Part shown: positions 8,759 to 26,663 of the stretch, one piece after another | Layout: each line of letters opens with the position of its first letter | How positions within the stretch are numbered: position 1 is the stretch's first letter | Source of the DNA: Candidatus Cloacimonadota bacterium | Lineage (GTDB): Bacteria; Cloacimonadota; Cloacimonadia; JGIOTU-2 | Direction of reading: 5' to 3' | Length of the DNA: 64,000 bases | NCBI GenBank assembly: GCA_049903315.1 | Contig: JBNGBT010000001.1 | Coordinates: forward strand, 160,001-224,000 | Translations under genes and position numbers: made by a program | The notes under the pieces: model-generated | Told to the model about the DNA's origin: nothing | The model's database searches: none | What the model saw: the letters and a program-made list of their open reading frames with translations, nothing else

Positions 8759-9637
8759 TTATTTTTTAAGTATGACAACTCGGTCGAAATCATTGTAGTC
8801 TTTTTTCGTGTCAATGATTTTGTAATTACATTCCTCTGCAAGCAAAGACAAACCATCTTTTTGATATGCTCCAATTTCAAAGAAGATCCGACCATCCTCT
8901 TTGAGAAAATTTTCTGCATTCAGTAAGATTTTATGATAGAATTCCATTCCGTCTTCTTTTGCAAAGAGTGCACCTTTTGGCTCATGATCTCGGACTTCTT
9001 CTGGTAAATCTTTGAACTCCTCTTCGCTGATATATGGTGGATTGGAGATTATGCAGTCGTAAGTACCCGTTACTTTATCAAAGATATCAGATCGCACTAA
9101 TGAGATATTCTGTATTTTTAGATGATCTATATTTTTTTTTGCGAGTTGTAATGCTCTTTCAGAAATATCCGTTGCAACGATGTGAATGTCTTTTTCCGAC
9201 TCTTTGAATGAATTGCTGATTGAGATTGGAATATTACCTGTACCTGTACCAATATCAAGAAGTGACCATGATTTTTGATTGGATTGTTTTATATGTGAAA
9301 TAACTGCATCGACCAGGATTTCGGTTTCAGGACGTGGAATGAGCACTCCTTCTTCGACGAAGAAAGGAATTCCATAAAATTCTGTAGAACCAAGAAGATA
9401 TTGAACCGGATAATGTGAAGCTCTTTTTTTGATAAGTTTTTTTATGTGTGATAGATCTTTTTCTGAAAGTGGTCTATCATATTTCATATATAAGTCAAGG
9501 CGTGAACATTCAAGAACATGAGCAATGAGCAGTTCTGCATTCAAGTGTGGAGAAGGTATTTCCTTTTCTGAAAAATAGTCCGATGTCCAGAAGAGTACGT
9601 CCTTCACTGTCCATATTTTACTGTCTTGCGATGCCAT
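8759..9637 (-). CDS. prmC: Release factor glutamine methyltransferase
   Basis: PVQYLLG, LIPRPETE, LDIGTGTG, SNPPYI, EIG..Q. Confidence 0.95.
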   Translation of the reverse strand: MASQDSKIWTVKDVLFWTSDYFSEKEIPSPHLNAELLIAHVLECSRLDLYMKYDRPLSEKDLSHIKKLIKKRASHYPVQYLLGSTEFYGIPFFVEEGVLIPRPETEILVDAVISHIKQSNQKSWSLLDIGTGTGNIPISISNSFKESEKDIHIVATDISERALQLAKKNIDHLKIQNISLVRSDIFDKVTGTYDCIISNPPYISEEEFKDLPEEVRDHEPKGALFAKEDGMEFYHKILLNAENFLKEDGRIFFEIGAYQKDGLSLLAEECNYKIIDTKKDYNDFDRVVILKK

Positions 9638-9753
9638 AGTATGAGTAACGAAACACAGGGTGAATTGTTGTCAAATTTATATGAGATTGATTAAGTTTTG
9701 ATGAATTATTTTACCGTTCAAATTGAACTTTGTGTCGAGAGAATGATGTGAAT

Positions 9754-11031
9754 TTATTTCATCAGCACACATTTTTTCAATGCTTCGGTTTTACCATTCA
9801 CATTCAGTTTATAGAAATACAAACCGGATTTTACCGAATTTCCTGATTCATCTTCTCCATTCCATGATACTGAATGTTCACCTGTCGGTATCGCTTGATC
9901 AACTAGAGTTTTCACTTTCTGTCCTTTTAAGTTATAGATTATAATTTCTGTGTTCTTTGAGCTCTGTTGCGTGAAAAATACTATTTCAGTAGTTGTATTG
10001 AAAGGGTTAGGACTATTTTGTGAAAGCAAAGATTCCGCAGCCTGATTCGAAGGTTCATCTATTCCGACGGTTGTCCATGTACCTGATGAGAGGTCGTAGA
10101 TGCAAAGGTCAGCACATGCTGCACCAAATTCATCAAGGCCGCCATAAAGAATAAGTACAGAATCAGGCTGATAAAAAGCCATTCCAGCATGATATCGCGC
10201 GACAGGGCAATCAGGGAGTTGTGTCCATGTCTCAGTTGTCATATCAAATTCATAAAAATCTGGCAGAACACCCTTATCAGCATTCAGGCCGCCGTTAACC
10301 CACATTTTCCCACCTTGGTATGTCCCTGCTTGATATGCCCTTGCACCCGGGTTGGCGCCGGAAGTATACACATAGTGAAATTCGTTGTCATTGGGGAGAG
10401 TGTATTTACGCACATCGCTGCGGAAGTCATTCTGGTTCCATCTGACCCCTCCATATAGATAGAGATCATTATTATTCATTCCACCGCTTTGTCCTGCTGA
10501 AGGAGCATGTATTTCCTTTTCTGTCCAGGTGTTTGTTGACATATCGTAACTCCAGAAATCCATCTTATTAGAGCCACTCGCATCTGTGCCGCCATAGAGA
10601 TAAAGATCGTTGCCATCTCCGACGAGAGAATGGTCTTTACGCGCCACAGGCAAGGTTGTTCCACCCTGAGGCCATTCTGACCATGTGTTCGTATACGGGT
10701 TATAAGACCACAAACTATTACTTAATCCATATGTGCTCTGTCCACCATAAACATACATGACTGCATCCAGATATGCGGCCTGGTCCTTGCTTGCAGGAGG
10801 TGGATCAGTGATAGGGACTACATTATTCCATCCATTTGCATCATAAGCAAAAAGGTCATCTTTTAGGTCTCCCTGAGCGCCTTCTCCACCGAAAAGCATT
10901 ACTCGTCCATCAGGCAGAGTTACCATACCGTGTCCATGACGTGCTCCGGGGTGATCATCTTTTTGGCTGAGTAAAAACGAGTTGGGGAAAATGATCATGA
11001 GCATACAAATTATTATTGTTTTACATTTCAT
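9754..11031 (-). CDS. Secreted Kelch-repeat beta-propeller protein with FlgD/T9SS-like C-terminal sorting domain
   Basis: Signal peptide; six (L/Y)xGG...Y....W Kelch repeats; QNSPNPFN...IYNLKGQKV...WNG.D...GLYFY. Confidence 0.85.
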   Translation of the reverse strand: MKCKTIIICMLMIIFPNSFLLSQKDDHPGARHGHGMVTLPDGRVMLFGGEGAQGDLKDDLFAYDANGWNNVVPITDPPPASKDQAAYLDAVMYVYGGQSTYGLSNSLWSYNPYTNTWSEWPQGGTTLPVARKDHSLVGDGNDLYLYGGTDASGSNKMDFWSYDMSTNTWTEKEIHAPSAGQSGGMNNNDLYLYGGVRWNQNDFRSDVRKYTLPNDNEFHYVYTSGANPGARAYQAGTYQGGKMWVNGGLNADKGVLPDFYEFDMTTETWTQLPDCPVARYHAGMAFYQPDSVLILYGGLDEFGAACADLCIYDLSSGTWTTVGIDEPSNQAAESLLSQNSPNPFNTTTEIVFFTQQSSKNTEIIIYNLKGQKVKTLVDQAIPTGEHSVSWNGEDESGNSVKSGLYFYKLNVNGKTEALKKCVLMK

Positions 11032-11123
11032 TTTTGACTCCTCTGTTATTGATTTACTTCATTTAACTATATTTTCTGAATAATCATCAGATTTTAGTCA
11101 AGTATTAAAATTCATGTGAGTAT

Positions 11124-11154
11124 AAAAAAAACGCACACCGAGTTCGATGTGCGT
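11124..11154 (-). terminator. Intrinsic terminator after the last C25 gene
   Basis: Minus strand ACGCACATCGA/TCGGTGTGCGT stem followed by a T-run. Confidence 0.75.
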
Positions 11155-11181
11155 CTAACATATATCGTAATAGTGCGGAGA

Positions 11182-14100
11182 TTATTTCATTAAGACCATT
11201 TTCTTTGTGATTTGCTTTTCGCTGGTTTCAAGCTTGTAGAAATACACGCCGTTGGCAACGGTTTTATCATGGTTATCTTTGCCATCCCATACAAAGTCCA
11301 TAACAGTTCCTTTCGGGCTTGTTTCCGGGACGAATGTTTTCACGAGTTGCCCTTTGATGTTATATATCTTCAACTCAGCCTTATGCGAATTTGCAGGAAG
11401 TGAGAAGGAAATAGTTGTTGAAGCAGTAACAGGATTTGGGAAATTCTGGTCGAGTTTGAATTGACTGATCATATAAGGATCGTCATTCGAGGTCATGGGA
11501 ATTTCATAACTGGAAGTGGGATCACCAATGAGAATATCATCAACATGGATACCGTCTTCTTGAACATAACCGTCTGAATCCATATAGAATCGGACATAAA
11601 CCTGTGGCTCACCTGCGAAATCAGAAAGGTCGGATGTTTCTGCCACCCAATCTACTTGTGTGCCGTCATAGAGCGGTTCCCCAGTTGGTTGGTAACTTCC
11701 TGTGCCGGGCTCCGTGTATTCACCTTCAAGTGCTGTCCATGTAGTTCCATTTGTCGATGCCTGTACTTGGGCATAGTCATAGTTGGGTTCTATATCCCAT
11801 TTTACATTGAAGTACAAGCTTGCACTGCCTTCCAGGCTGCTCAGATTGATGGGATTTGTGAGCTGCAAAATAGCCGTTGTCCAGGAAGGATAACTACCAC
11901 CGGGGCTGTCTGTAAAGGAATGGGTTGGTGAAACATAGTCTTCTTCAGTTGCTCCCCAATCAGCAGAAGTCCATTGAGCAGTGCCATCTTCTGCATCATC
12001 AAAGAGTTGTGCAAACCCAAGATGATAATCATATTGTGCATCACCGCTTACTGTCAATGTTCCAACATAAGGGACATGACCTTCGGCAGTGACATAGAGA
12101 TTATATGTAAAGTTTGGAAGGCTGACTTCATAGCTTCCTGCAGATGACTGTACAGAAGCAAATTCCTCGCCGTTATCTATTCGCAAATATGAAAGTGTCG
12201 CATTGTTTATCATCATGAAATCATTAAAGACATTCCCCGAAATGAATCCGCTCTCTACTGGATCTAGTACGATATCATGTGCATTCGAACCGTATCCTAA
12301 GAAATAATTGAATTCCTGGTAGGGATCATAGCCCCATTTGTTTATATAAATATCATAGTATTCTACCGCATAGTCTTCGGAAGATGAGTAAATTCCGGAT
12401 GCATCTGTCGTTGAAATAAATACAGGATCATCTTGATTAGGATTAGCTCCGTGTTCATAGAAGCTGACTTCAGCATTGGATACAAGAGAGCCGTTTTGAC
12501 TTTCTGTGACTATGCCGGACACATTTCCATATGCAACGATTACAGGGAAGATCTCTTGATATATATTATATCCTGATTTCGCAATGATTGCATCCACTGG
12601 AGTCAGTGTCGAAGGTGTGACATTATACGTGATGTCGTCAGCAGCACTGAATCCTCCGCCATCGACATTCACCCATAAAGTATAATTATCTTCATCAGCA
12701 GAAGCTTCAATTGTGCCTTCGAGGTTCAATGCAAATGTGTCTGCAAGACCAAAGTCTGTGGTCACGTTCAAACTCGGATTGGTCAGATCAAGCGCAGTGA
12801 CATCCACCTCTTCATGGAAAAGATAATAATCATCGCCCGGATTCTTTCCATATATCTGAAGTGTGGGACCATAATTGTAGTTCACATTAAGAACTGCTGT
12901 ACCTGTAACATCAGTAACTTCTGTTGCAGAGGTATAATTCAGCCCTTCTGCCCATACATCTACTCCAACCTGAGGTGAAATGCTGTCCGGTGCCATAACT
13001 TCGACAGTAACCAGCGACTGGGTATTGACATTGATCGTACCGGGATTAATGGTTACGACACTTGCAGTAACTATAATGTCACCTACATATTTATGATAAT
13101 TGTGGGCAACGACTGCAATATGAAGAATTCCTGCTTCACTTGGAACTGTATCAAATATAAGTGTGCCTGTTCCGAGGATATTGATCTGAGCATATCCGTA
13201 AATTGTATCATCGTCATATACAACGACTCTGGATCCGGCAGGAGCTGAAATATCTATTTGCGGGACACCAGCCATTATGGTTTGAGGATAAACCGGTACG
13301 AGTAATGACGGTTCGGCAGTCCATAATTCGAGTGCAGGATCGCCAAGCTCGTTAAGTTGGTAATAGCACCATCTTATGAGTTCGTCGGTGTTAATAAAGG
13401 GGAGGGTTTGCTCTTTGGAAAGCTGATTTGCTCCGCTGACAGAGTAAACACCTGTATCAAAATAGACATCGATATACTGTCTATGGAAATGCTGAGATGC
13501 ACCATCTGTTCCACCTTGCTGTCCCCATCCATACCTGCTGTTTCCGACGAATGAAGATGCAGCTGTAGACATATTAGTAATAATTTCGTAGAAGCAGTCT
13601 GAGCCATAATAGCCCGATGAAGTTCTGTTATCTATTGAGCCGGAATAACATGCTTGAGAATATCCATTATAGAAGTTGTGAGTAATACCATCGTTGGTAA
13701 GATTATAGGTTGTAAGATCGCCATTATCGATATTCAGGCAGTGTGTTGTGGAGCCGTGTCCGAGGTGATTAAGGAAATTCGGTCCAAGATTCAATTCATT
13801 ATAGAGATCGCTTGAAGACCAGTTATAGTTTATCTGGTAGAGTGTTGTTACCGCCCAGCTGCCAGGGATTCCTACAGTTGTGTAGCCATTTGAAGAACTT
13901 CCTATGAGGAGTTCATTCATATACGTACCGCCGTAGGTGCCTGGCCAAAGATTTTCACCAACCATCAGAGAAGATTCGAGATCACCCAAAATAGGTGATT
14001 CCAGGTATCTCTGGATCTTATTTATTTGATTTGCAATCTCAGTGCTGTTATTTGCGGCTATTCTGCCGATATACACTTCTGCAAGCATGTCGGCTTCATT

Positions 14101-15117
14101 CTCTTCACCCCACAAAGAATTGTTGTTATTATTCCAATCAGGACCTATTCCTGCTGCTGCAGTACGGTCAAGACAGCCATAATACATATCTGCGGGAATG
14201 TCGTCGTCCTCATAGCCGTAGCCCGGATCAACATACATACCCCTATCAGGTATGATGTCAGTATCTGCACCCATGAGCACATATTTGACAGGATAGTCAG
14301 TATATTCTGCAATCACATAGTTTCTGATCTGATCTCCGACATCCACACCCGGATAATTGAGCATAATATCACTCACAAGAGTGATCGTTGATTTCAGTCC
14401 TCTCATTGCGTGGAAATCTGCAAGTGGCTGAAAATCGTCCTCGAAGCTGCTACTGGTAATGATGATATAATCATATCCGTCAGCTTTTGTTTGGGGAACG
14501 GTATAAGTGCCAAGCATGTCAATATTATCCACAAGTGCAGCAAGTCTGGTTTCTATTTCAGGATTATTGTGTAAAAATTTTTGAGCATTTTCTGCTGCTG
14601 CATCATAGGATGTTTCAAGTGTGACAACTGCCTTTTTGTAATAACTCAGCTCCTTTGTTGAAGGCATATAGGAAAGGGGAGTAACTGCAAAAGAACCGAT
14701 AGAATATCCTGCGAGATAATGAGTAGTATAATCATTATACTGCTTGGTTGGGAAAGGTGAATCACTTGAATAAATAGTCTGGTCCGGAGGAGTGAATTCT
14801 GCCTGATCTAATAATGAAAGGGGCATGGGTTGTTGCTTGGGATAAATGGTGTAGTTTCCAAGAGGAGTTTTTTCAAAGAATTCAATTGTGATATCAGAAA
14901 CAGCCTGCATTTGAGGAAGAAGGAGATTGATGCCAATATAGGGCAATGAGGGTTCGCCGGGATTTCCAAGATGGTAACTATCTTCCAATTGAAGAATGGC
15001 ATATTCACCATCGATTTCTACTTCTGGAGCATCAAAGTAATAGGTCTTTGTTATCATATCTGCAAAACTGATGGATGTAATAAAAAGAATGATGATTAGA
15101 ATACTAATTTTTTTCAT
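11182..15117 (-). CDS. Gingipain-family C25 cysteine peptidase (third subtype) with C-terminal sorting domain
   Basis: Propeptide (GEPSLP), IPADMYY, NHLGHGS (His), SQACYSG (Cys), GNSRYGW, LGDPAL; C-terminal NFPNPV...GVYFY. Confidence 0.9.
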   Translation of the reverse strand: MKKISILIIILFITSISFADMITKTYYFDAPEVEIDGEYAILQLEDSYHLGNPGEPSLPYIGINLLLPQMQAVSDITIEFFEKTPLGNYTIYPKQQPMPLSLLDQAEFTPPDQTIYSSDSPFPTKQYNDYTTHYLAGYSIGSFAVTPLSYMPSTKELSYYKKAVVTLETSYDAAAENAQKFLHNNPEIETRLAALVDNIDMLGTYTVPQTKADGYDYIIITSSSFEDDFQPLADFHAMRGLKSTITLVSDIMLNYPGVDVGDQIRNYVIAEYTDYPVKYVLMGADTDIIPDRGMYVDPGYGYEDDDIPADMYYGCLDRTAAAGIGPDWNNNNNSLWGEENEADMLAEVYIGRIAANNSTEIANQINKIQRYLESPILGDLESSLMVGENLWPGTYGGTYMNELLIGSSSNGYTTVGIPGSWAVTTLYQINYNWSSSDLYNELNLGPNFLNHLGHGSTTHCLNIDNGDLTTYNLTNDGITHNFYNGYSQACYSGSIDNRTSSGYYGSDCFYEIITNMSTAASSFVGNSRYGWGQQGGTDGASQHFHRQYIDVYFDTGVYSVSGANQLSKEQTLPFINTDELIRWCYYQLNELGDPALELWTAEPSLLVPVYPQTIMAGVPQIDISAPAGSRVVVYDDDTIYGYAQINILGTGTLIFDTVPSEAGILHIAVVAHNYHKYVGDIIVTASVVTINPGTINVNTQSLVTVEVMAPDSISPQVGVDVWAEGLNYTSATEVTDVTGTAVLNVNYNYGPTLQIYGKNPGDDYYLFHEEVDVTALDLTNPSLNVTTDFGLADTFALNLEGTIEASADEDNYTLWVNVDGGGFSAADDITYNVTPSTLTPVDAIIAKSGYNIYQEIFPVIVAYGNVSGIVTESQNGSLVSNAEVSFYEHGANPNQDDPVFISTTDASGIYSSSEDYAVEYYDIYINKWGYDPYQEFNYFLGYGSNAHDIVLDPVESGFISGNVFNDFMMINNATLSYLRIDNGEEFASVQSSAGSYEVSLPNFTYNLYVTAEGHVPYVGTLTVSGDAQYDYHLGFAQLFDDAEDGTAQWTSADWGATEEDYVSPTHSFTDSPGGSYPSWTTAILQLTNPINLSSLEGSASLYFNVKWDIEPNYDYAQVQASTNGTTWTALEGEYTEPGTGSYQPTGEPLYDGTQVDWVAETSDLSDFAGEPQVYVRFYMDSDGYVQEDGIHVDDILIGDPTSSYEIPMTSNDDPYMISQFKLDQNFPNPVTASTTISFSLPANSHKAELKIYNIKGQLVKTFVPETSPKGTVMDFVWDGKDNHDKTVANGVYFYKLETSEKQITKKMVLMK

Positions 15118-15141
15118 ACTGATGTCCTTACTTTTATTTTT

Positions 15142-16578
15142 TTATTTTTCTAATTTTCCATTTTTAAAAATAATTTTATTATCAACTTTAATGGTTTTAT
15201 CAAGCATATAGAATTGTGCGATCATATTAGAGTCAATATTGCTGGCTTCGAGTTCGTCCCAGCCAACCTGCAAAGTGAGCGCACCAAATATTTTTGTATT
15301 AATGTATGGATGGTAAATATTTTTATGAAGTGCAGGATTCATCCCTATTGTGAACGAGCCAACAAGTTTTTTGTCTCCGGTGGCATTTTTGAAAAGGGTT
15401 TGAAGTTTCTCATCATCTTCTTTTGCCTTCATCTTTGTAATCTTATTTTCATGAATTGTGATGTCAACATCTTCAAAGAGTGTATCATAGAGATAAGCAA
15501 AATCTGTGTGGAATTTCCCATTGATCATGCCTTTTTCAAGCAAGCCGACAACCAGTCCACCAGGAAGTTCGGAGTCAGTGGCAAGAGAATTTGCAATTCC
15601 ATCTTTTATCTGAAGAACTCGTTCCTCGGGAAGTTTCATGTCGAGCAGACTCCCGTTCCCATCTTCAATGGAAATTGTGTTGGATGTTGCAAGAAGATCC
15701 TTGACCCGAAGACAGTTCTTCGTGAGTTCTTTAGGTTCTTCATTGAGTGCCCGCCAGTACATCTCACTTCTCAGTTCAGCATCAGCTTTCTGAAAATTAT
15801 TATATATCGTATCTATTGTAAGGAAGCGGACATCGGTTTCGTAGGTTTTGCGCACATTTTCCCGTTTTGCTTCTTCGATAAGATTGCTTTTTTCGATAAG
15901 CTCTTCACTGAGCGTTTCATCTTCAATCTCATCGAGGAATTCTCCGGAAAAGATAATATGGGCATCAGCTTCATTAATAAGAAAATCACTTATGACATCC
16001 TTGGTTGCACAGGTAAGGGGTACATGACGGATGAAGTTATACTCCATCCGCTTCGTCCAGAAAACAGGTATTGCATAAGCTCCCTGACGAGCAATTTCCA
16101 CCATAAGATCTTCGACCAGCTTCCTGTGCATGGGCTGGTAACTTATTACCACTTTTTCATTTTCTTTTATAGCAAGGTTGTGAGTAATAATCTTATGTGC
16201 AATATCCCTGAAACTGATTTTGATGACTTGTTCTCTTCGCCATTCATCAATTTCCTGGCTGAGCACAGCATGAATGACATTGGATTTTTTTAAATTAACT
16301 TCACCAAGTGAAACGTCAACGAAATAATTCCTTGCAACAGCACGATAATATTTTTTAATCGTGCCACGGACATGTTCAGATTCGACCAATTCTATAAGTC
16401 CAGCACTTTCAAGCTGTTGCATGTCATACCAAAGTGCATTGGGTTTGATGTTGAATTTCAATGCAAGTTCTTGTGCCGTATATTCTCTGTCAACCATGTG
16501 GCGAAGAATTTTCAAACGTCTATCAGAGGACAGGGTCTTGATTCCTTCGAGCGTTGAGATATAAAAAATTTCCTGCAT
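15142..16578 (-). CDS. ArsR-type wHTH regulator fused to an M29 aminopeptidase-like domain lacking metal ligands
   Basis: N-term L...RRLKILRHM...TAQELA......L.SAGLIE....RG..KKYY; C-term resembles AmpT/AmpS fold (L.IKENEKVVI, LPGG, G.F.IG.NP, DNKIIFKNG). Confidence 0.75.
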   Translation of the reverse strand: MQEIFYISTLEGIKTLSSDRRLKILRHMVDREYTAQELALKFNIKPNALWYDMQQLESAGLIELVESEHVRGTIKKYYRAVARNYFVDVSLGEVNLKKSNVIHAVLSQEIDEWRREQVIKISFRDIAHKIITHNLAIKENEKVVISYQPMHRKLVEDLMVEIARQGAYAIPVFWTKRMEYNFIRHVPLTCATKDVISDFLINEADAHIIFSGEFLDEIEDETLSEELIEKSNLIEEAKRENVRKTYETDVRFLTIDTIYNNFQKADAELRSEMYWRALNEEPKELTKNCLRVKDLLATSNTISIEDGNGSLLDMKLPEERVLQIKDGIANSLATDSELPGGLVVGLLEKGMINGKFHTDFAYLYDTLFEDVDITIHENKITKMKAKEDDEKLQTLFKNATGDKKLVGSFTIGMNPALHKNIYHPYINTKIFGALTLQVGWDELEASNIDSNMIAQFYMLDKTIKVDNKIIFKNGKLEK

Positions 16579-16609
16579 AAATTACACTTTCTTCATACTT
16601 CAGAAGTGA

Positions 16610-16637
16610 ACTTGCGGGAGTATTTCATCCCGCAAGT
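16610..16637. other. Strong intergenic hairpin between Rgp-like gene and regulator
   Basis: ACTTGCGGGA-gtatttca-TCCCGCAAGT, 10-bp perfect stem; weak U-tract on the minus strand. Confidence 0.65.
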
Positions 16638-16648
16638 CATTTTATTAT

Positions 16649-19600
16649 TTACTGCAATAAGAGTAATTTCTTCGTAATTTCTTTCTTGTCAGTAGTGAGT
16701 CTATAGAAATAAACTCCGTTTGCTACTGGTTTGTTTACATTATCCTTACAATCCCATTCGAAAGTGAAGAGAGGTCCTTCATCGATATTGGGAGTGAAGG
16801 TTTTCACAAGTTGCCCTTTCACATTATAAATGGAAAGTTCTGCTGTCTGAATATTCTGCGGAAGTGCAAAGGAGAAGGTCGTGGAATTGTGTACAGGATT
16901 TGGGAAGTTCTGATGCAGCGATACTATTTCAGTAGGGCGAGGATCGTCGTTACTGACTATTGGAATTTCATAACTTGTGCTTGGATCGCCGATGAGTACA
17001 TCGTCTATATACCAGCCATAATATGTATGCACCGAATAGTCAGATGCAAATGTCCAGCGCAATGTTGCCGTGTTACCGGCATGAGCTGAAAGGTCAAATT
17101 CAACCTGCTCCCAATCGGCAATCTGACCACCGAAGCCCGGAGCACTCAGAGCGCTGATATTGCCGCTGTAACCGCCCTCAGGTGTGATGAGATTATAACC
17201 TACTCCGCCATTTGTGGAGATCGTAACATTTCCGCCATCATACAGAGTTGAGGTCCCTTCGAAATTATAATAATGCCAGAAATAAAGTGTGGCGTCTGCA
17301 GGAACAGTGAATTCTGGAGAGTACAGGAACCAGTCCACATTATCCTGATAGGTTCCTCCAAGAACTGTTCCCCAGAGATTTATTCCGGAGTGAGCAGTGA
17401 TACCACCGGCAGTTGGTTGTCCCCACTGCCATCCACTCGGATCACTGCTTACAAAATTCCCATCATTTGGCTCAAAATCAGAAAAGAGAGTTGCATAGCC
17501 AAGATGATAATCAATGATCATATCACCATTCACAAGCAAACTGCCTGAATATGGAACGTATCCCTGTGCAGAGACATAGATATTGTAGTTGAAATGCGGA
17601 AGAGAGACACTATACGCTCCATAAGAGATATCTGAAACTGCATACTCGTCTCCATTATCCGATCTATAATAATGTATGGTACCATTTGCAATATTTGCAA
17701 AGTCACCGTAAACGGTGCCGGACACATTTCCACTTTCAACCGGATCAAGCTGCATATCATGAGAATTTGCCCCATACCCGAGGAAGTAGCTAAGTTCCTG
17801 ATAGGGATTAAATCCCCAATGGTCTATATAAATATCGTAATTATCAACAGCTTGCTCGGAAGGTACATTGTAAAATCCAGAAGAGTTTGTCGTTGCAATG
17901 AAAAGAGGATCATCTTCAGGAACTGCACCTTCTTCATAGAAGCGCACCTCTGCATTAGAGATCGCAGTGCCGTTATCACTATCAGTGAGTGTTCCGGAAA
18001 CAGTGCCAAATGCCACAATTACTGTGAAATCTTCTTCATAAATATTGTACCCGGATTTCGAGATTATTGAATGAACGTTTCCCAATTCATCAGGGGTCAT
18101 TAACAACGAGCTGCCGGCTGTGTTTGCGTAGCCATTTTCATTCAGCTTTGCCCAGAGTGTTGTCCCGTCGTCAGTGCAGTACTGGTTGATAGACGCTTCC
18201 ATGTTCATAGCAAGGGTGTCATACAATCCAAAGGTCGTTGTCACATCAATATCAGGATCTGTTAAGCTGAGAGCATTTACCGTGAGTGATTCATCGAAGA
18301 GGAGGTAATCTTCATCAGGTCGTTGACCGCAGATTTGAAGCGCAGGTCCAAATTGATAATTGATAGAAAGTACTGCCTCTCCATTTGAATCAGTGGCTAT
18401 CACTGAAGATGTATAATCGAGTCCTTCTGCCCATACATTTACGCCTACTTCAGGATTGATGCCATCGCTGTCCATAACGGTCACAGTAACATTTGTTGCC
18501 TGATTGACATTAATAATATGAGGAGTGATATCTACCTGAACTGGGACGATCGCATCAAGAAGTGCGGTATAAGGTATTGTATTGTAAGCAGTGACGGTTA
18601 GGGTCATTTGTCCGGGAGTCACCAGCGGCTCATCGAGAGTAATAGTTGCATGACCAGTGAAATCTGTATTACCGTAACCATACAGAGTGCCATCCATATA
18701 CAACCCGATAAGTGCGCCTTCAATGCCGACCACTTCGACGTCATAAGTAGTTGAGCCGAGGGGGATAATAGGATTATGATTCACTGTCATTAATGCTGGA
18801 GTATCTGTTCGAAGTTTTACTGAGGGATCTCCGAAAACTGTCCAGTACTGAAATTCGTTTGTTCCGCCAGATGGATTTTCATCCATCATTTGCATTGCAC
18901 CACTGAAAAAATAGTTACCGACAGTCGTGACTTTTTCATTTGCAAGGAACATATTTGCGTGATACTCAGCGATCATAGGTGGGAGCCAGCTCTGACTGAT
19001 AACTGATGCATACACGCCAATCGAGCCGGTTGGAATTCCGCTCGAATTATTTGTGGCACGTGCCCATGCTTCAGCAAAACAGGTGGAGCCGGTGAAATTA
19101 CCATTCAAACAGGCAACACACAGGACTGTGGGATACATATAATTATTAGTAAGTGAATTAATATTTGTGGTTGAGAATCCGGTTGTGCCCCAAGATGTTG
19201 TTGAGCCATGACCGCAGTAATTAACAACACTGCGCCCATTATTTATTGCGTTGGCCACATCAGAAGCTGTTCCTGACGGATCATAGATCTGGTCTACCGA
19301 GGTGTAGTTCCATGCAAGTAATGAATCGCGGATGTGATCCATCATAACATAGTCAGCCCAGCCATTATATCCAATACCTGAACCTTGAGAAGAAGCTACA
19401 CCGACACCTTTATGCATCCAGTCACCGGAAATAAATGGATCAGATTCATAGTAGAGCACGCGGTTGACCTGGGTTTCTACATGTGTGCCGGTCTCAGCCG
19501 AGAATCTCCCGACAAATGCATCAGGATAAGAATCTCCGCCCTCAAGGCAGGCATACAAAGGATCTTTATTGTTTTCGCAGGGAACAACTTGCGGAGCATC

Positions 19601-20527
19601 ACCTACAATAAGAATGAAGGCAAGATTCCATGTGTTATAGAGATTTTGAATGTAATTTTTGATGGCGGTATAGTTATTTCCAATAGTGCCTACATTCACC
19701 ATCTGGGTTGGAATACCCTTTTTATTTTTCCATTCATACAAGGGCTGCATTTCGTCTGCAAAATCATCATAAGTAATAATGACCATTGATCCGACTGCAG
19801 GTGTGGGAACGTGTCTGTGATACTGTGACGCACGTTCATAATTTATGAATTGGGTTTTATACACCTCAAGAAATGAAGCAGCTACACTCTCGCATTCAAA
19901 TAAACCCTTATCCTTCACATTGACATCACTATAACCATTCTCAGTCACTTTGATGTTTATAGTAGTGTACACACGAAGTTTGTGCTGTACAGGATTATAT
20001 TGAAAGGGTTGCACTTGAATGACCATTCCGCGTGCATCCCGCAAAATGTAAGGATCTCCAGCAAAAGCGATCTCCTGCGGATACCACACATCTTCATTAT
20101 ATATAGGATCAAATGTGTACGGTACATCTTCAGGATTGATTTCACGAGAGAAGTTTCCTTTTGAAGGGATCACGTAGATATTTTCAAATTCTTCATATTG
20201 AGAGTTTACGACAGCAACTTCCATATTTGAGCGTGGAGGAATAAGGACACTTCTATTAATATGCGGAAGTTCCGGATATCCCCGATTAAGAAGAATGCCT
20301 TCATGAGGTATGATGATTTGCGAGTATTCTTTTCCATCAATCAGCACTTCTTCTTTATTAAAACCATTGATTGAATATGTGAGATCAATGAGGTTATCAT
20401 TTGATGTGAGCACCTCGACCTCAACGGCATTTTCTTTGTCGCCATTGAGCGGTATCCATGTGTGCTGTCCTGCAAATAGAGAAGATGCAAGAAGCAGTAG
20501 ACTAATAAGAATGACAAATTTTTTCAT
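16649..20527 (-). CDS. Arg-gingipain (Rgp)-like C25 cysteine peptidase with C-terminal sorting domain
   Basis: NYCGHGSTTSWGT, CVACLNG, CFAEAW, SQSW.PPM, WTVFGDPS match RgpB catalytic-domain motifs; Rgp-type propeptide (PSKGN..R...P..VPY.F). Confidence 0.9.
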   Translation of the reverse strand: MKKFVILISLLLLASSLFAGQHTWIPLNGDKENAVEVEVLTSNDNLIDLTYSINGFNKEEVLIDGKEYSQIIIPHEGILLNRGYPELPHINRSVLIPPRSNMEVAVVNSQYEEFENIYVIPSKGNFSREINPEDVPYTFDPIYNEDVWYPQEIAFAGDPYILRDARGMVIQVQPFQYNPVQHKLRVYTTINIKVTENGYSDVNVKDKGLFECESVAASFLEVYKTQFINYERASQYHRHVPTPAVGSMVIITYDDFADEMQPLYEWKNKKGIPTQMVNVGTIGNNYTAIKNYIQNLYNTWNLAFILIVGDAPQVVPCENNKDPLYACLEGGDSYPDAFVGRFSAETGTHVETQVNRVLYYESDPFISGDWMHKGVGVASSQGSGIGYNGWADYVMMDHIRDSLLAWNYTSVDQIYDPSGTASDVANAINNGRSVVNYCGHGSTTSWGTTGFSTTNINSLTNNYMYPTVLCVACLNGNFTGSTCFAEAWARATNNSSGIPTGSIGVYASVISQSWLPPMIAEYHANMFLANEKVTTVGNYFFSGAMQMMDENPSGGTNEFQYWTVFGDPSVKLRTDTPALMTVNHNPIIPLGSTTYDVEVVGIEGALIGLYMDGTLYGYGNTDFTGHATITLDEPLVTPGQMTLTVTAYNTIPYTALLDAIVPVQVDITPHIINVNQATNVTVTVMDSDGINPEVGVNVWAEGLDYTSSVIATDSNGEAVLSINYQFGPALQICGQRPDEDYLLFDESLTVNALSLTDPDIDVTTTFGLYDTLAMNMEASINQYCTDDGTTLWAKLNENGYANTAGSSLLMTPDELGNVHSIISKSGYNIYEEDFTVIVAFGTVSGTLTDSDNGTAISNAEVRFYEEGAVPEDDPLFIATTNSSGFYNVPSEQAVDNYDIYIDHWGFNPYQELSYFLGYGANSHDMQLDPVESGNVSGTVYGDFANIANGTIHYYRSDNGDEYAVSDISYGAYSVSLPHFNYNIYVSAQGYVPYSGSLLVNGDMIIDYHLGYATLFSDFEPNDGNFVSSDPSGWQWGQPTAGGITAHSGINLWGTVLGGTYQDNVDWFLYSPEFTVPADATLYFWHYYNFEGTSTLYDGGNVTISTNGGVGYNLITPEGGYSGNISALSAPGFGGQIADWEQVEFDLSAHAGNTATLRWTFASDYSVHTYYGWYIDDVLIGDPSTSYEIPIVSNDDPRPTEIVSLHQNFPNPVHNSTTFSFALPQNIQTAELSIYNVKGQLVKTFTPNIDEGPLFTFEWDCKDNVNKPVANGVYFYRLTTDKKEITKKLLLLQ

Positions 20528-20539
20528 TGAGGGTCCTCC

Positions 20540-23500
20540 CTAACGTAACAATATCATTTTTTTAGTTATTTCTTTATTATCGGTTGTTAATCTATAGAAA
20601 TAGATTCCATTGGCAACCGGCTTTTCAGTCATATCCTTGCCATCCCACTGAAGCTCATGAAGAGGGCCGGTGGATAGATCAGGAATGAAGGATTGTACGA
20701 GTTGTCCTTTGATGTTATAGATCTTCAGTTCGGCTTTTGCGGCATTAACAGGCAGCATGAATGATATCGTGGTTGAGTTGAGAACAGGATTTGGGAAGTT
20801 CTGCTGGAGTTTTGTCGTCACAATTTGAGGAATTGGATCATTATCAAAATAGATTTCCTGCCAGCTTGAATTAGGATCTCCATAGAGCACATCATCGATG
20901 TACCAGCCATAATAATCATGAACTGAATAGTCTGTGCCAAAATGCCAACGGAGGATAGCATTATCACCCGTATAACCGCTGATATCAAATTCAACCTGCT
21001 CCCATTCATCGATCTGACTGCCAAAACCTTGTTCGCCATCAAGTCCGCTGATAGATCCAGTATATCCTCCTACTGGTGTTATGACGTCAAAGCTAACTCC
21101 TCCATTTGTCGAGATGGACACATTTCCACCATCATAGTATGTGGAGGTTCCTTCAAAATCATAGAAATGCCAGAAAGTTAACATACCTGAACCGTTTATC
21201 GAAAATGTTGGAGAATCAAGAGTCCAGTCTACATTATCGACACCATAGTACCCATCGATCACTGTAGCCCAGCAATGTGTGCCGGAATGTGCGTATATCT
21301 CACCACCTGAAGGTATGCCCCATTGCCAGCCGTTTGGATTATTACTCACAAAATTTCCATCATTTTGCTCGAAGTCAGCAAAAATCGCTGCATACCCAAG
21401 ATGATAATTTATTCCCATATCACCTTCAACCGTTAGGGTTCCCGAATATGGGACATGCTGAGGTGAAGAAACATAAACATTGTAAGTAAAGTTTGGAAGT
21501 ATTACTTCGTAGGTTCCATCGCTCAAATCAACTGTTGCATATTCTTCACCATTGTCGCTGCGGTAATAGCTAAGAGTGCCAGTACTGAGAATAATGAAGT
21601 CACTGACAAGTTGACCAGAAATCATACTGCTTTCAACAGGGTCCATAACAATATTATGTGTGTTTGCACTATAGTTGAGGAAAAAGCCAAGTTCCTGATA
21701 TGGGTCAAAGCCCCATTTATCAATATATATATCATAGTGATCAACTGGATATTCAGAAGTTATTTCATAATAGCCTGATCCATCAGTAATATCGCTGAAA
21801 AGAGGTGGCTCAGTAGGATCTCCACCCTGCTCATAGAATCGGACTTCAGCATTCGCAATGGCAACAGCATTATCAGAATCTGTTACAATACCCGAAACAG
21901 TACCGAATACTTCGATAGTTGTATAGGTTTCCTGATACATATTGTATCCCGATTTCATAATACCGGCTTTGATGTCTGTAATGCATGTAGGCGTATATGT
22001 TATTTGATCTGAGGAAGAATAGATGGATGTATCAATTTCAACAACGTAAAGTCCATATGTGCAATCTGTCTCATCCTGTGAGAAGAGTACAGTGCCGGGA
22101 AGATTCAATCCGAAAGTGTCTTCAAGACCAAAAGTTGTTGTAACCCATATTGAAGGGTTGGTAAAGTCCATTCCGCCAGTAACCCCCAAAGGTTCTTCAA
22201 GAAGGTTATATCCATCTCCGGTTCTCCACCCTATCACATTAAGGATCATGTCACCACCGTATTCACCACCAAAATTTAATGTACAGCTTCCAGAGGTATT
22301 GGTCATGCCCGAAGTTGTTCCATACACACCAGGTCCGGTAATGAGAATGTTCACATTAGGAATAGGTGTCGTGCCATCATCTTCAAACACATCAATTGTA
22401 ACATCTGTCAATGTATTGATCGGAACAGAAGTTGGGGTAATATTCACTACTGCAGGTGTAGCGACAACAACAGTTGTGCGCACGGGTTGATATTGAGGTT
22501 TAGTGACGACAATATTAGCTGTACCTGCTGTAGTAAAAGGATCGATAGTTACTTCTGCAGTCCCGAAATCATTTGCCAGTGCTGCGCCGTGAAGCACACC
22601 GTTCATAGAGATTGCAACATAAGAGCCAGGATCTGCTTGCACGGTAAAGCTTGTCGAGCCAATAGGTAAGAGTCCGGGGAATGAAACACTGTTTGTGCTT
22701 CCCTGAGTAAGATATGTTACGACAGAGGGATCTCCGAGAATGTTATATGCCTGCCAATAATAGGTAGGATTAGAATGTTGCGGATATCCTTGTATGTCGA
22801 CTTCTGTAACTGCAAGATTGCCACAAAAGAGTATTGCATCATTACATACATAATCAGAAACGAATGGTGCATCATAAGCGCCCCATGAGGTTTCTGCATA
22901 GGTGGGCACATAACCGCCGCCAGGATTGCCGAAAGCTCCTACTGCCCAATAAAAATCCTCATACCAATAAGAGGAAGGGGCAGAAGCAATATAACCGATC
23001 GAGCCCGTTGGTTCACCGGTAGCAGTATCTGTAGCACGGGCAAAAGTTTCGCCGAAACATTCAGAGTACCCGAAATCACCCGACAGACAGCAGTTTCCGA
23101 TTGTAAGAGGAAGCTTGCCTACATTAGTAAGCGCATTCACCATTGATTGACTAAAATTGGGATTACTCCAGCTTGTCTGGCTGCCATGAGCAGTGTAGTT
23201 GATGAAAGAAATTCCATCATTTACGGTATCATAGCATCCTGTATAGGAAGTAAGATAAGCATGAACATCATTGAATCCATGCAAAGCATTGAAATAATTT
23301 TCAGTTCCGTAATGAACTGTTGGCTGACCGACACTTGGGTTCCAAGAACCATCAGCACCTGCGATCAATGTTACGTCATCAAGGAAAGCGGGAACAGGAA
23401 ATTGATATTGTTCATATTCAATGGTTCTGTCAACCTGAGTTTCAAGCTGAGCAACAGTAGTAGCGGAAAATCTTCCGTAATACATTTCCGGGAACATGTC

Positions 23501-24520
23501 GCCGTCAACGCTACAATAATAGAGGTCAGTAACTTTATTTGTGGATGTTCCGATCTCTGAAGGAATCTGTCCGGTATCACCAACAAAGAGCACGAAACTC
23601 GGAGCTGGATCGGAGGGGGTTCCTGCATTGTATTGATTATGAATCCAGGTTTTGATTTGAGCTACCGAGCCGCCGATAATGTCTGTATATCCAACAATAA
23701 CATTAAATCCTTTTTGGGCTTTCCAATCAATGAAATCCTCAAGAGTTGTTTCAAACATTCTATCAGCAACAATAAGATACTTTACAGGGTAGGTTACAAG
23801 ATCCGGATGAGCTGGATAGCCGTGATCTCTACCATTAAATAGTCTGTCATTGATAACATTGAAATAAGGTGAAGCAGTTGCTGCTTTTGTGTATTCTGTT
23901 TGTGCGATATCAGGATTATGAAAGTGTACATTTACCTGAATGTCGTTATAGACCTTAATCTTTTCCTGAACAGGATTGTATTTAACAGGAGCAATGACAA
24001 TACGAGCTATGCGATATCCACGAAGTGTTCCGACAACTTCTACGGTTGCAAGTTCGACATCTTTAAAGGAATCTGTAGAATAAATATCTTCATTAAATTC
24101 AAAAGGAACGGTAGAGGGATCAGTATTCTTGGAATAGGAGGGTTGAACTGGAGCAATAGAATGAATAATTCCATATTCACTCAGATCGTATTCCTGCATT
24201 GTGTAATCAAGCACTTCTATGGAAACTTCTGCTCCAAAAGGAATATCAATCAATTTTTTGATTGCGGGAAGTTTGGGTGATCCAATTTCTCCTATGAAAT
24301 AACCATCTCGGATTGCAAGTTCTGTGAACTCTCCACCTTTACTGGTGATATCCATAGTAGATATTTCTGAAAATTCAAAGGTAACATCTAGGTCATTATA
24401 AGAATTTTCAGTGATTTCAAATTTAGTTTCTGCTTTGTCCAATGCAATGGGTGAATTGCTTGCGAAAGCGAGCGAAGCCACAAAGGTGAACAGCAGAACA
24501 AATAACAGTGTTTTCTTCAT
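20540..24520 (-). CDS. Lys-gingipain (Kgp)-like C25 cysteine peptidase with C-terminal sorting domain
   Basis: TDLYY, PEMYYGRFSA, NYTAHGSQTSW, IGNCC, SYWYEDFYWAVGA, YYWQAY..LGD match Kgp catalytic-domain motifs. Confidence 0.9.
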   Translation of the reverse strand: MKKTLLFVLLFTFVASLAFASNSPIALDKAETKFEITENSYNDLDVTFEFSEISTMDITSKGGEFTELAIRDGYFIGEIGSPKLPAIKKLIDIPFGAEVSIEVLDYTMQEYDLSEYGIIHSIAPVQPSYSKNTDPSTVPFEFNEDIYSTDSFKDVELATVEVVGTLRGYRIARIVIAPVKYNPVQEKIKVYNDIQVNVHFHNPDIAQTEYTKAATASPYFNVINDRLFNGRDHGYPAHPDLVTYPVKYLIVADRMFETTLEDFIDWKAQKGFNVIVGYTDIIGGSVAQIKTWIHNQYNAGTPSDPAPSFVLFVGDTGQIPSEIGTSTNKVTDLYYCSVDGDMFPEMYYGRFSATTVAQLETQVDRTIEYEQYQFPVPAFLDDVTLIAGADGSWNPSVGQPTVHYGTENYFNALHGFNDVHAYLTSYTGCYDTVNDGISFINYTAHGSQTSWSNPNFSQSMVNALTNVGKLPLTIGNCCLSGDFGYSECFGETFARATDTATGEPTGSIGYIASAPSSYWYEDFYWAVGAFGNPGGGYVPTYAETSWGAYDAPFVSDYVCNDAILFCGNLAVTEVDIQGYPQHSNPTYYWQAYNILGDPSVVTYLTQGSTNSVSFPGLLPIGSTSFTVQADPGSYVAISMNGVLHGAALANDFGTAEVTIDPFTTAGTANIVVTKPQYQPVRTTVVVATPAVVNITPTSVPINTLTDVTIDVFEDDGTTPIPNVNILITGPGVYGTTSGMTNTSGSCTLNFGGEYGGDMILNVIGWRTGDGYNLLEEPLGVTGGMDFTNPSIWVTTTFGLEDTFGLNLPGTVLFSQDETDCTYGLYVVEIDTSIYSSSDQITYTPTCITDIKAGIMKSGYNMYQETYTTIEVFGTVSGIVTDSDNAVAIANAEVRFYEQGGDPTEPPLFSDITDGSGYYEITSEYPVDHYDIYIDKWGFDPYQELGFFLNYSANTHNIVMDPVESSMISGQLVSDFIILSTGTLSYYRSDNGEEYATVDLSDGTYEVILPNFTYNVYVSSPQHVPYSGTLTVEGDMGINYHLGYAAIFADFEQNDGNFVSNNPNGWQWGIPSGGEIYAHSGTHCWATVIDGYYGVDNVDWTLDSPTFSINGSGMLTFWHFYDFEGTSTYYDGGNVSISTNGGVSFDVITPVGGYTGSISGLDGEQGFGSQIDEWEQVEFDISGYTGDNAILRWHFGTDYSVHDYYGWYIDDVLYGDPNSSWQEIYFDNDPIPQIVTTKLQQNFPNPVLNSTTISFMLPVNAAKAELKIYNIKGQLVQSFIPDLSTGPLHELQWDGKDMTEKPVANGIYFYRLTTDNKEITKKMILLR

Positions 24521-24725
24521 CGAAAACCTCCATATTTTTATCTTTAATATTTTAAAATAAGTTTATTCAAAAAAATTTGATTAAAATCTCGCTCTTCGAA
24601 GAAGATTGTCAAGTGAAATTAGTTTTTTAATGAATTTTTTTATAAATATTAATATTAAATAAGTAAAACAAAAATTATTGACATTATTATAGATAATAAA
24701 ATTAAATTGTGTGGAGGTAAGCAAA

Positions 24726-25064
24726 ATGGAAACAAAAGATATGATAAAAAAAGTCAAAGGTGAAGTCAGCAGTGTGCTTTCAACTGTGGCAAACAAAGCT
24801 GAGTTTATAGCCAAAATGTCTAAATTGAAGATTGAAATTACCCACAAAAATGCAAAGGTTAACAGCAATTTGAAGGATATTGGCGAGTATATTTATAGTA
24901 AGAAATCTGAATTTACAAATGATAAATATATTGCTGAAATTTTAAAAGAAGTAGAAGAAATTAAGCAATCAATTGAAGAGATAAAATCGAGAATTGAAGA
25001 TATCAAGATATTAGAAAAAGAGAAGCATAGTCAAAGCGAAAAGCGAAAGAATTCCCAAGAGTGA
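24726..25064 (+). CDS. Hypothetical coiled-coil protein
   Basis: GGAGG RBS before ATG 24726; K/E-rich helical ORF. Confidence 0.7.
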   Translation: METKDMIKKVKGEVSSVLSTVANKAEFIAKMSKLKIEITHKNAKVNSNLKDIGEYIYSKKSEFTNDKYIAEILKEVEEIKQSIEEIKSRIEDIKILEKEKHSQSEKRKNSQE

Positions 25065-25090
25065 TAAAATAAAGGAAGAGCAGCAGAGAA

Positions 25091-25507
25091 TTGAAACGAT
25101 TAATGGCATTAGATTATGGAGAACGGCGTATCGGGATCGCTCTTTCTGATCCCGACCAACTTATTACTTTTCCTTATCAGACAATTGATACAAAAAAAAC
25201 TCCGGACGTAGTGAAAGAGATAGTCGGAATAATCAAGGAACAGGATGTCGGGGCACTTATTATCGGCAATCCATTGAACAGTCTTGGGGCTGATTCTAAA
25301 AAATCAAAAGATGTGAAAACATTTATTACAATGCTTTCACACCATATTTCAATCCCGATCACATTGTGGGATGAATCCTATACAACGAGAGCAGCGATTA
25401 CTCTTATGAACCGGGCGAACAAGAAACTAAAAAAAAACCGGGATAAAGTTGATCAACTTGCTGCTTCCTTGCTTCTGCAAGATTATCTTGAGCATCATAG
25501 CGAATAG
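25091..25507 (+). CDS. ruvX: YqgF/RuvX family pre-16S rRNA nuclease
   Basis: LALDYG.RRIGIA.SD, WDE.YTT, VD.LAA..LLQ.YL. Confidence 0.92.
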   Translation: MKRLMALDYGERRIGIALSDPDQLITFPYQTIDTKKTPDVVKEIVGIIKEQDVGALIIGNPLNSLGADSKKSKDVKTFITMLSHHISIPITLWDESYTTRAAITLMNRANKKLKKNRDKVDQLAASLLLQDYLEHHSE

Positions 25508-25516
25508 CATAACTTT

Positions 25517-26488
25517 ATGAAAAAAGCTTTTTTGGTAGTATTAATATTTGTTTTTCTTTATTTTGTGTATTTTACCATTATGAGCTTGTATGTAAAATAT
25601 CCGATACTTAATAAAACAATAGATATCCAAAAGGGTTCATCAGTATTTCAAGTCGCAAAGAAACTTGAAGAAAAAGAAATAATTTCATCTGCAACACTCT
25701 TTCTCGTAGCAAACAAATTATTGCCGGGCGACAAGCAGATTCGGTATGGCAAATTCAATTTTACCGGGAAATATTCTTTTGTTGAAGTGCTTCATAAACT
25801 CACAAGCGGCGAGGTTGTGACCAATCGTATTACTATACCAGAAGGATACACCGTCCGTCGTGTTGCAAGTTTGCTCGCACGTCAGGAATTGGCAGATTAT
25901 AGTATTTTTATGTCACTTTGCTCGGATTCCTCGTACATTAACAGTCTGGGATTGCCGATACAGAATCTTGAGGGATTTCTCTTTCCTGAAACATATTACA
26001 TTCCATATTTTGCTGATGAAGAATATATCATTAAAATGATGGTCGATGATTTCTTTTTGCAATTTGAAAATGTTCATCCGAACCCACTTTCTTTTGACTC
26101 GTTATATGATGTGGTAATCATGGCCTCGATTGTTGAGAGGGAAGCAATTTATGATGACGAAAGACCGCTTATTGCTGGAGTGTATAATAAAAGGTTGAAA
26201 GAGCGGATGCTCTTACAGGCAGATCCTACAGTTGCCTATGCTTTGGAATTGAATCGGATTTCCCGCAAGAAAATATATTATGACGATCTTAAGATAGAAT
26301 CAGATTATAATACATATTTGTATAGAGGACTTCCACCGACACCGATCTGCAATCCCGGTATTCAGTCAATTCTTGCTGCTCTTCACCCACAAGATACAGA
26401 ATATTTATTCTTTTTTGCAGGGAAAAATAAAAGGCATATATTTTCCAAAACATATAGGGAACATTTGCAGAAGTTGAATAGGATTTAA
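25517..26488 (+). CDS. mltG: Endolytic transglycosylase MltG
   Basis: TIPEG, LEGFLFPETY, ASIVERE, LQADPTV, YNTY...GLPPTPICNPG. Confidence 0.95.
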   Translation: MKKAFLVVLIFVFLYFVYFTIMSLYVKYPILNKTIDIQKGSSVFQVAKKLEEKEIISSATLFLVANKLLPGDKQIRYGKFNFTGKYSFVEVLHKLTSGEVVTNRITIPEGYTVRRVASLLARQELADYSIFMSLCSDSSYINSLGLPIQNLEGFLFPETYYIPYFADEEYIIKMMVDDFFLQFENVHPNPLSFDSLYDVVIMASIVEREAIYDDERPLIAGVYNKRLKERMLLQADPTVAYALELNRISRKKIYYDDLKIESDYNTYLYRGLPPTPICNPGIQSILAALHPQDTEYLFFFAGKNKRHIFSKTYREHLQKLNRI

Positions 26489-26535
26489 TCTTCTGAATGT
26501 TGGATTTTTAATATGAGGTGATTTTTTCTCGTTAT

Positions 26536-26562
26536 CTCGTTCCTAAGTTGCACTTGGGAACG
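26536..26562. repeat. Isolated REP-like hairpin
   Basis: CT-CGTTCCTAAGT-tgc-ACTTGGGAACG; same architecture as the hairpins flanking the RAYT gene. Confidence 0.55.
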
Positions 26563-26663
26563 GCACTTATTATTTAAGAATTACCAATTCCAGCTTGGCA
26601 TTCAGAGGATTTGAGTTCAATCAAAAATCTTAAATCGGTGTTCGATATTCTTAGATCAAATAA

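Follow-up and report, generated by a model that had tools for sequence, protein, structure and literature searches.

The locus described here poses the question of why a gene whose product joins a DNA-binding domain to what looks like an aminopeptidase should lie inside a run of genes for gingipain-like (C25) proteases, and of whether that aminopeptidase is still an enzyme or has become the sensory part of a transcriptional regulator. The window, by which we mean the whole stretch of 64,000 nucleotides analyzed from a Candidatus Cloacimonadota bacterium, contains at this locus the co-oriented gene order C25, C25, regulator, C25, with gaps of 12, 70 and 24 nt, and the following features:

20540..24520, minus strand: C25 gingipain-like protease gene 1, 1326 aa, with propeptide and T9SS-type CTD (ORF and Pfam)
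16649..20527, minus strand: C25 gingipain-like protease gene 2, 1292 aa (ORF and Pfam)
16610..16637, minus strand: stem-loop between gene 2 and the regulator, with no U-run on the coding strand (folding, z -5.1)
15142..16578, minus strand: regulator gene, 478 aa, winged helix plus ligand-less M29 fold (ORF, Pfam, structure match and profile alignment)
16315..16578, minus strand: winged-helix domain, residues 1-88, ArsR-like and closest to PH1932 (Pfam and structure match)
15145..16239, minus strand: M29/AmpS-T-fold domain, residues 114-478 (structure match, alignment and the residue list in the available text of PMC7023490)
11182..15117, minus strand: C25 gingipain-like protease gene 4, 1311 aa (ORF and Pfam)
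11129..11156, minus strand: stem resembling an intrinsic terminator, with a T run, at the end of the predicted operon of 13.4 kb (terminator scan and folding)

An initial annotation of this DNA had placed the regulator between two co-oriented C25 genes; the common orientation stands, and the run holds three such genes instead of two. By eye, His-Gly and Cys motifs occupy the catalytic positions in each of the three, while a regular expression recovers both motifs in two of them and only the His motif in the third. Homologues of SprA and PorV are present in the genome, and the CTD proteases thus have a likely export route; a T9SS may be present in the phylum according to the available part of PMC11285876. 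With 13 C25-domain ORFs and CTDs of the T9SS type in 175 of 2360 ORFs, the genome carries an unusually large secreted repertoire for a member of a phylum outside the Bacteroidota. Beyond the operon terminator lies a gene for a secreted Kelch-repeat CTD protein (9754-11031, minus strand), a slot that varies among relatives. One metatranscriptome contains 8% of the sequence words. Every bin of positions 9000-27000 is touched by its 63 contigs, most of which are 85-95% alike; these contigs show related organisms only and are not counted as evidence.

In the AlphaFold model, built from 109 sequences (pLDDT 87.8), the regulator is a complete M29 aminopeptidase fold fused to a winged-helix domain. 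Its residues 110-478 match NicX, PepS, AmpT and AmpS in Foldseek (E values of 3e-17 to 9e-13), and VIA Z scores for the C-terminal domain of this predicted model against the same four structures are 25-28. The comparison with AmpT and AmpS proposed in the initial annotation has thus confirmed the fold, with Z of 25-26 to AmpS, AmpT and PepS. Pfam places Peptidase_M29 (PF02073) at residues 124-404 (29.9 bits against a cut-off of 27) and HTH_20 at residues 16-65 (27.1 bits, cut-off 27). The N-terminal ArsR/HTH_20 winged helix that had been read from the bare sequence is borne out by this match and by structure: PH1932 (1uly) superposes on residues 1-88 with Z 10.4 and an rmsd of 1.4 Å over 87 residues, and ArsR structures reach Z of about 10. 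The metalloregulator family NF033788 of NCBIfam stays below threshold (27.3 bits, cut-off 55), and the translation and clade alignment contain no Cys and no conserved His within residues 1-120. By the features tested, the regulator is neither an active member of M29 nor an ArsR metalloregulator.

A search for the same fusion elsewhere, likewise suggested in the initial annotation, reveals it to be conserved. We found 41 homologues, 39 of them full-length at 48-96% identity, and a representative search added further ones. Across the Cloacimonadota, 170 of 232 genomes match the regulator at E<=1e-15 and about 111 of the 232 (a hand count) hold a near-full-length match at E<=1e-110, the remaining matches being stand-alone M29 proteins or fragments. 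The Eisenbacteria-labelled phylum (that of genome G232) yields matches in 24 of 31 genomes at E<=1e-60, and source names also put fusions in Zhaonella, Ca. Aegiribacteria and Planctomycetota. The GTDB loci were sorted into three groups. Group A comprises 17 Cloacimonadota loci with a protein of 478 aa, Ca. Celaenobacter antarcticus (90%) being one of them; group B comprises 26 loci with a protein of about 490 aa, and many of these bear the label Eisenbacteria; group C, with a protein of about 455 aa, comprises 29 Cloacimonadota loci. The protein of Ca. Syntrophosphaera (L044) is of the 455-aa type. An Atlas cluster that includes members of the family comprises 388 proteins, 90% of them with PF02073, and database labels of family members read either aminopeptidase or ArsR regulator. 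A scan of metagenomes with the fusion P0050 returned no full-length fusion among 45 loci, and a plasmid search with the same query returned no record covering 80% of it. In a FastTree tree of the M29 parts (101 of 146 sequences, leaving out 45 near-redundant fusion rows), a support of 56 cannot settle a single origin of the fusion, and no order of events is therefore claimed.

Several features of these relatives deserve mention in their own right. Metal ligands are partly or mostly missing from 27 of 37 stand-alone M29-fold relatives (among them P0076, P0084, P0091, P0094, P0097, P0106, P0109, P0110, P0113, P0114 and P0116); 26 of the 27 form one clade (support 97), many start by eye with a signal-peptide-like segment, and on their sequences they may represent a family of exported, non-catalytic binding proteins. 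Two genomes of the genus of this one, G220 and G212, carry a second, 455-aa-type regulator together with a 1030-aa adhesin-like gene (L196:560-5032 and L197:5243-9701), and G220 also carries the operator form of the 455-aa group. The regulator appears to be split into two frames in the assemblies of L031, L077, G017 and G074. Finally, the stem-loop ahead of the regulator is kept in all 10 group A sequences folded, although the sequences themselves are unrelated (z from -2.2 to -7.6 in 9 relatives), and it may stabilize the upstream message or dampen expression of the regulator.

The M29 catalytic set comprises E250, E316, H345, Y352, H378 and D380 in LmAmpII, where every single mutant is inactive (available text of PMC7023490). 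A profile-profile alignment of the regulator with 10 ligand-intact short M29 proteins (probability 99.96) runs without a gap across residues 345-477 and places L342 and S408 at the two Glu metal positions, T435 and I453 at the two His positions and Q455 at the Asp position, with the Glu of the DEK motif becoming T428. The position of the catalytic Tyr of AmpS and LmAmpII, 7 after the His, is taken by E442; a Tyr is also missing there from the short ligand-intact relatives. The initial annotation had claimed the loss of all six ligands from motifs read by eye: these are all in the translation, and the alignment upholds every replacement. The scaffold motifs LP.G, IG.NP and G..L..G are common to the regulator and M29 enzymes. 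The regulator is almost certainly devoid of peptidase activity. Not one of the 109 aligned fusion rows retains all five metal ligands: 61 retain none, and one, two, three or four are left in 42, 2, 3 and 1 rows, respectively. The fusions with 3-4 of the five (P0044, P0050, whose cluster includes Zhaonella formicivorans, P0055 and P0058) are possible intermediates between enzyme and sensor. Strong purifying selection is evident on the M29 part, with dN/dS of 0.05-0.07 in all 8 orthologue pairs. Residues at the former active site differ between clades, so that no single ligand pocket is conserved. The same genome encodes a separate M29 protein of 684 aa with a long N-terminal extension (L081:7368-9422, minus strand), between lysS and apparent phosphonate-type ABC transporter genes (names by eye); its intactness rests on ligand motifs visible by eye, since the multiple alignment misplaced its C-terminal ligands and put only 2 of 5 in register.

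Two further features lie upstream of the first C25 gene:

24562..24585, no strand assigned: predicted operator, a 24-bp palindrome with 1 mismatch to TTTATTCAAA-N4-TTTGAATAAA (comparison of upstream regions and genome scan)
24607..24612, minus strand: TTGACA, putative -35 box, which starts 27 nt ahead of the palindrome, a spacing that most sites share

The starting point of the motif was a block after TTGACA conserved upstream of the first C25 gene in five relatives; searching this genome for the block at <=2 mismatches led to four other intergenic regions, from which it was symmetrized to the consensus above. The 2.96 Mb of the genome contain four sites with <=2 mismatches (3 with 1 mismatch, 1 with 2), and all four are intergenic; the expectation, computed by shuffling intergenic DNA 30 times, is 0.07. 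A further 4 sites have 3 mismatches, and 1 of these is intergenic. A matrix derived from 20 palindrome sites of other genera (threshold 12 bits) retrieves exactly 5 sites, again all intergenic, though these counts are not fully independent because the consensus was refined here and the matrix sites were picked with it. The five lie at 24562-24585 in the window, at the head of an LVIVD-C25-C25-CTD-M14-...-C25 run, before a single C25 gene, before pgsB-pgsC and before an M14 carboxypeptidase gene. The four sites other than the one in the window have the genome coordinates C22:278630, C22:332138, C33:110885 and C33:276709 (G000). Seven of the 13 C25 genes stand in co-oriented runs behind the three best sites, and the other six have no palindrome site. 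The initial annotation had suggested EMSA on the 24521-24725 intergenic region; the conserved palindrome lies in this very region, and also before other peptidase operons. A sigma-70 consensus scan did not call the operon promoter, and the start site is therefore inferred from the spacing to TTGACA. The motifs of the 455-aa clade and of the Eisenbacteria-type group have no exact match upstream of genes in this genome.

The presence of the palindrome at pgsB-pgsC and the poly-gamma-glutamate system genes (L114:1673-4870; G000 C22:332172 onward), seen also in G222 and G229, would couple a capsule or matrix polymer to the protease regulon. Another gene close to the C25 operon, at a distance of 2 kb (window 26664-28406, minus strand), encodes a Porphyromonas-type peptidylarginine deiminase with a T9SS-type CTD; it adjoins the C25 operon in locus L002 too, and no palindrome was found at the gene in the window at <=3 mismatches.

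The operator extends beyond this genome. At <=2 mismatches the palindrome occurs in all 20 other genomes of family f1 (1-8 copies each), in 23 of 62 genomes of f15 (1-2 copies), in 1 of 98 of f5 and in 59 of 232 overall, while a reversed-pattern control scores in 3 of 21 f1 genomes. Loci could be obtained for 30 of 44 sites in 10 relatives, which as kin genomes are not independent. Of these sites, 13 stand before a C25 gene and 7 before the LVIVD gene, with which a C25 operon begins in the present genome; M14 genes follow 2 sites, pgsB follows 2, other genes follow 3, and 3 lack an assignable gene. In 23 of the 30 the palindrome starts 25-28 nt after TTGAC, so that it overlies the place where the -10 box and the start are expected; repressors of the ArsR family have as their binding sites inverted repeats that overlap the start site (available text of PMC8790569). 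The ArsR motif ATCAA-N6-TTGAT found no confirmation in the available texts of PMC3598800 and PMC8790569 and plays no role in the operator argument. In G211, which has the regulator, the single palindrome site precedes a gene outside the C25/LVIVD/M14/pgsB set.

Group C regulator genes lead their operons and have TRGTCWAAWWNWTCTTGAC upstream, which shares its half-site, TTRGTCAA, with variants of group A (for example TTTAGTCAAA) but has a spacer that is shorter by 1 nt. This pattern has 52 exact matches in the 232 genomes, some of which contributed to it, and 49 of them lie 47-133 nt upstream of a regulator gene; in five near-complete genomes of the clade no copy of the motif was found away from the regulator locus. 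When the pattern is relaxed, it turns up in the 220 nt upstream of 12 out of 13 additional regulator genes, which come from six families, and in none of 400 control upstream regions. Group B possesses a different element, conserved but not palindromic, directly behind the -10 box, with 5 of 6 sites at the regulator in the genomes used to derive it; in L033 and L036 this element forms a tandem pair upstream of the regulator. Autoregulation through a family-typical half-site would be the simplest reading of these sequences.

Our preferred reading, to which we give a probability of about 0.55, is that the regulator is a dimeric one-component repressor acting on the 24-bp palindrome and released once its former active site has taken up an amino acid or short peptide. 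A dimer would sit on the palindrome at the promoter of its own C25 operon, blocking transcription, and would also repress the other palindrome-headed operons of the genome, until an amino acid or short peptide in the former active site released it from the DNA. M29 enzymes open and close around their active site (available text of PMC7023490), a movement that could be coupled to the HTH pair. The components of this reading differ in strength. It is very probable that the regulator binds the palindrome and represses. That the dead M29 domain binds an effector seems reasonably likely by analogy with CgnE, which derives from M29, has a broken metal site and binds its peptide (KD 1.8 uM; available text of PMC10070186). 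The chances that this effector is an amino acid or peptide are about even. Release of repression is modestly favored over co-repression because the same operator precedes the poly-gamma-glutamate operon, whose expression would be expected at times of amino-acid abundance. No match to Opp/Dpp (PF00496), POT (PF00854) or OPT (PF03169) transporters was found in the genome (96% complete), which makes a free amino acid or cytoplasmic peptide likelier than an imported oligopeptide.

A different account, unlikely but by no means negligible, is that the regulator represses through the palindrome while its dead M29 domain is mainly a dimerization scaffold or reads another signal, which could be a protein partner, the state of the envelope or of secretion, a small molecule of another kind, or a metal bound by a new acidic cluster. 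The neighborhoods of the regulator in the wider family lend it some weight. In group A the next downstream gene encodes a C25 protease in 14 of 17 loci and an S8 protease with CTD in 1, the rest being another gene and a contig end (1 each). In group C, on the other hand, 26 of 29 loci have a 1087-aa CTD protein with a gingipain-type adhesin domain, and in group B 13 of 26 have a CTD protein, mostly with an InhA-like MAM domain (9 loci are cut and 4 have another gene); no peptidase family match was found among these neighbors in either group, and a domain search found no C25 domain in the 55 loci of both. Outside those 55, locus L187 has a C25 gene upstream of the regulator. Set against the genomic background of CTD proteins given above, these counts indicate that the family-wide link is to secreted T9SS-type cargo and that the protease link belongs to group A only. 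The synteny with C25 genes put forward in the initial annotation holds accordingly for group A and fails for groups B and C, and the control of secreted protease genes that it proposed gains a computed operator link in group A and none in B and C, where the neighbors are adhesin-like.

The versatility of the M29 fold, which also serves the dioxygenase NicX, the top structural match, is equally compatible with another signal, as are the absence of a recognizable peptide importer and the retention of H423, D441, E442, E444 and D449 in 18-20 of 20 clade members. A scaffold role would suit the dimerization of M29 enzymes through their N-terminal part (available text of PMC10070186), the part that is better conserved here (69% versus 57% identity); purifying selection nevertheless acts on the catalytic domain as a whole (dN/dS 0.07-0.15). 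Against another signal, peptidase operons account for four of the five targets in this genome, and the product of the fifth is an amino-acid polymer; the Lys of the DEK motif, too, persists throughout the three clades as it does in intact enzymes.

Less plausible still is that another transcription factor of family f1 binds the palindrome and the fusion regulates something else. There are two other HTH_20 matches in the genome, and the palindrome and the paralogous-clade motif do not have the same spacer length, the difference being 1 nt. The regulator was found in 19 of the 20 other f1 genomes, and co-occurrence there is weak evidence because operator and regulator are both nearly universal; G210 (88% complete) and G214 (54%) have 2-mismatch sites and no regulator match. 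Nonetheless, the half-site is found directly ahead of the regulator gene in as many as six families, is also present where it is not the -35 box (L190, L191, L194-L196), accompanies the second-clade copy in G220 (L196), and the palindrome in the window fronts the very operon that contains the regulator. These observations argue for the fusion itself as the protein that binds the operator.

It is highly improbable that the C-terminal domain remains an enzyme through shifted or new catalytic residues, making the protein a bifunctional regulator-enzyme. Many members are named aminopeptidase in databases, a few distant fusions keep 3-4 ligands, as mentioned above, and conserved acidic residues lie near the site in sequence. 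Ligands recovered by a shifted alignment, which the initial annotation had named as a way for its proposal to fail, were looked for, but none falls in register in the ungapped stretch. The ligand strands contain no conserved His, and different clades show different replacements; moreover, the iron ligands of NicX align to these same lost positions. Pfam scores barely over their cut-offs might point to a fusion that arose by chance or is decaying, or to an assembly artefact, but this is refuted by full-length homologues at 48-96% identity, by the presence of the fusion in about 111 of 232 genomes and by a dN/dS of about 0.06.

Several known systems resemble the regulator in part. The M29 aminopeptidases AmpS (1zjc), AmpT (2ayi), PepS (4icq) and LmAmpII share the two-domain fold of residues 110-478, but the regulator is only 12-13% identical to them, lacks all six EEHYHD residues and has an N-terminal DNA-binding domain. 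CgnE and CgnB of crocagin biosynthesis (6zsu, 6zsv) have an M29-derived fold like that of the regulator (Z 15-16) and lack aminopeptidase activity, CgnE having lost metal ligands (available text of PMC10070186). These two are stand-alone monomers in RiPP biosynthesis with no additional domains and lack the N-terminal dimer region, whereas the regulator has the full M29 N-terminal region, an HTH and C25 neighbors; CgnE has lost two ligands and the regulator all of them. NicX, a 2,5-dihydroxypyridine dioxygenase (7cn3) and the best structural match (Z 28.4), illustrates that the fold can be repurposed, but it is an enzyme that keeps metal ligands at the positions lost here and has no DNA-binding domain. 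With ArsR/SmtB and PH1932/Phr-type repressors the regulator shares the winged-helix fold, an inverted repeat at the promoter and predicted autoregulation; unlike them, it has no Cys and no His cluster in its HTH and carries a 365-aa effector-type domain. The one-component regulators of the GabR/MocR type combine an HTH with a catalytically disabled enzyme fold as sensor, with another enzyme fold and HTH class than those seen here, and GabR appears only as a weak row in the Foldseek results for the model. Two features of a one-component regulator with an enzyme-derived sensor are present, namely an HTH and an enzyme-like domain in one conserved polypeptide and, by computation, a conserved operator at its own and target promoters.

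Our verdict, drawn from sequence comparison, is that the HTH-M29 fusion would constitute an undescribed family of pseudo-peptidase one-component regulators with a predicted regulon. The literature searched, chiefly open-access main texts and abstracts, yielded no description of such a fusion or of any M29-based sensor regulator, nor of a regulator of Cloacimonadota secreted proteases; the available text of PMC3598800 holds nothing relevant to the fusion or its operator. In anaerobic digesters and in lakes, proteins are among the substrates of Cloacimonadota, and secreted peptidases and poly-gamma-glutamate genes have been reported in them (PMC8542988), the word 'regulator' being absent from the available main text of that source. 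More tentatively, and with rather less than even odds, we suggest that a multi-phylum family has turned an aminopeptidase site into a peptide or amino-acid sensor, which in this organism would act as the master switch of extracellular proteolysis (seven gingipain-like proteases and M14 carboxypeptidases) and poly-gamma-glutamate synthesis through one 24-bp operator, responding to the products of those same proteases. Testing the predictions on regulator, operator and regulon does not require a culture of the organism, since in vitro assays or a reporter host would serve, and the partly degraded fusions that keep 3-4 of 5 ligands are still available for studying the transition from enzyme to sensor. 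If the reading is correct, M29 would join the enzyme folds that have been recycled as sensors, and several hundred proteins now annotated as aminopeptidases, as in the Atlas cluster of 388, would likely be transcription factors.
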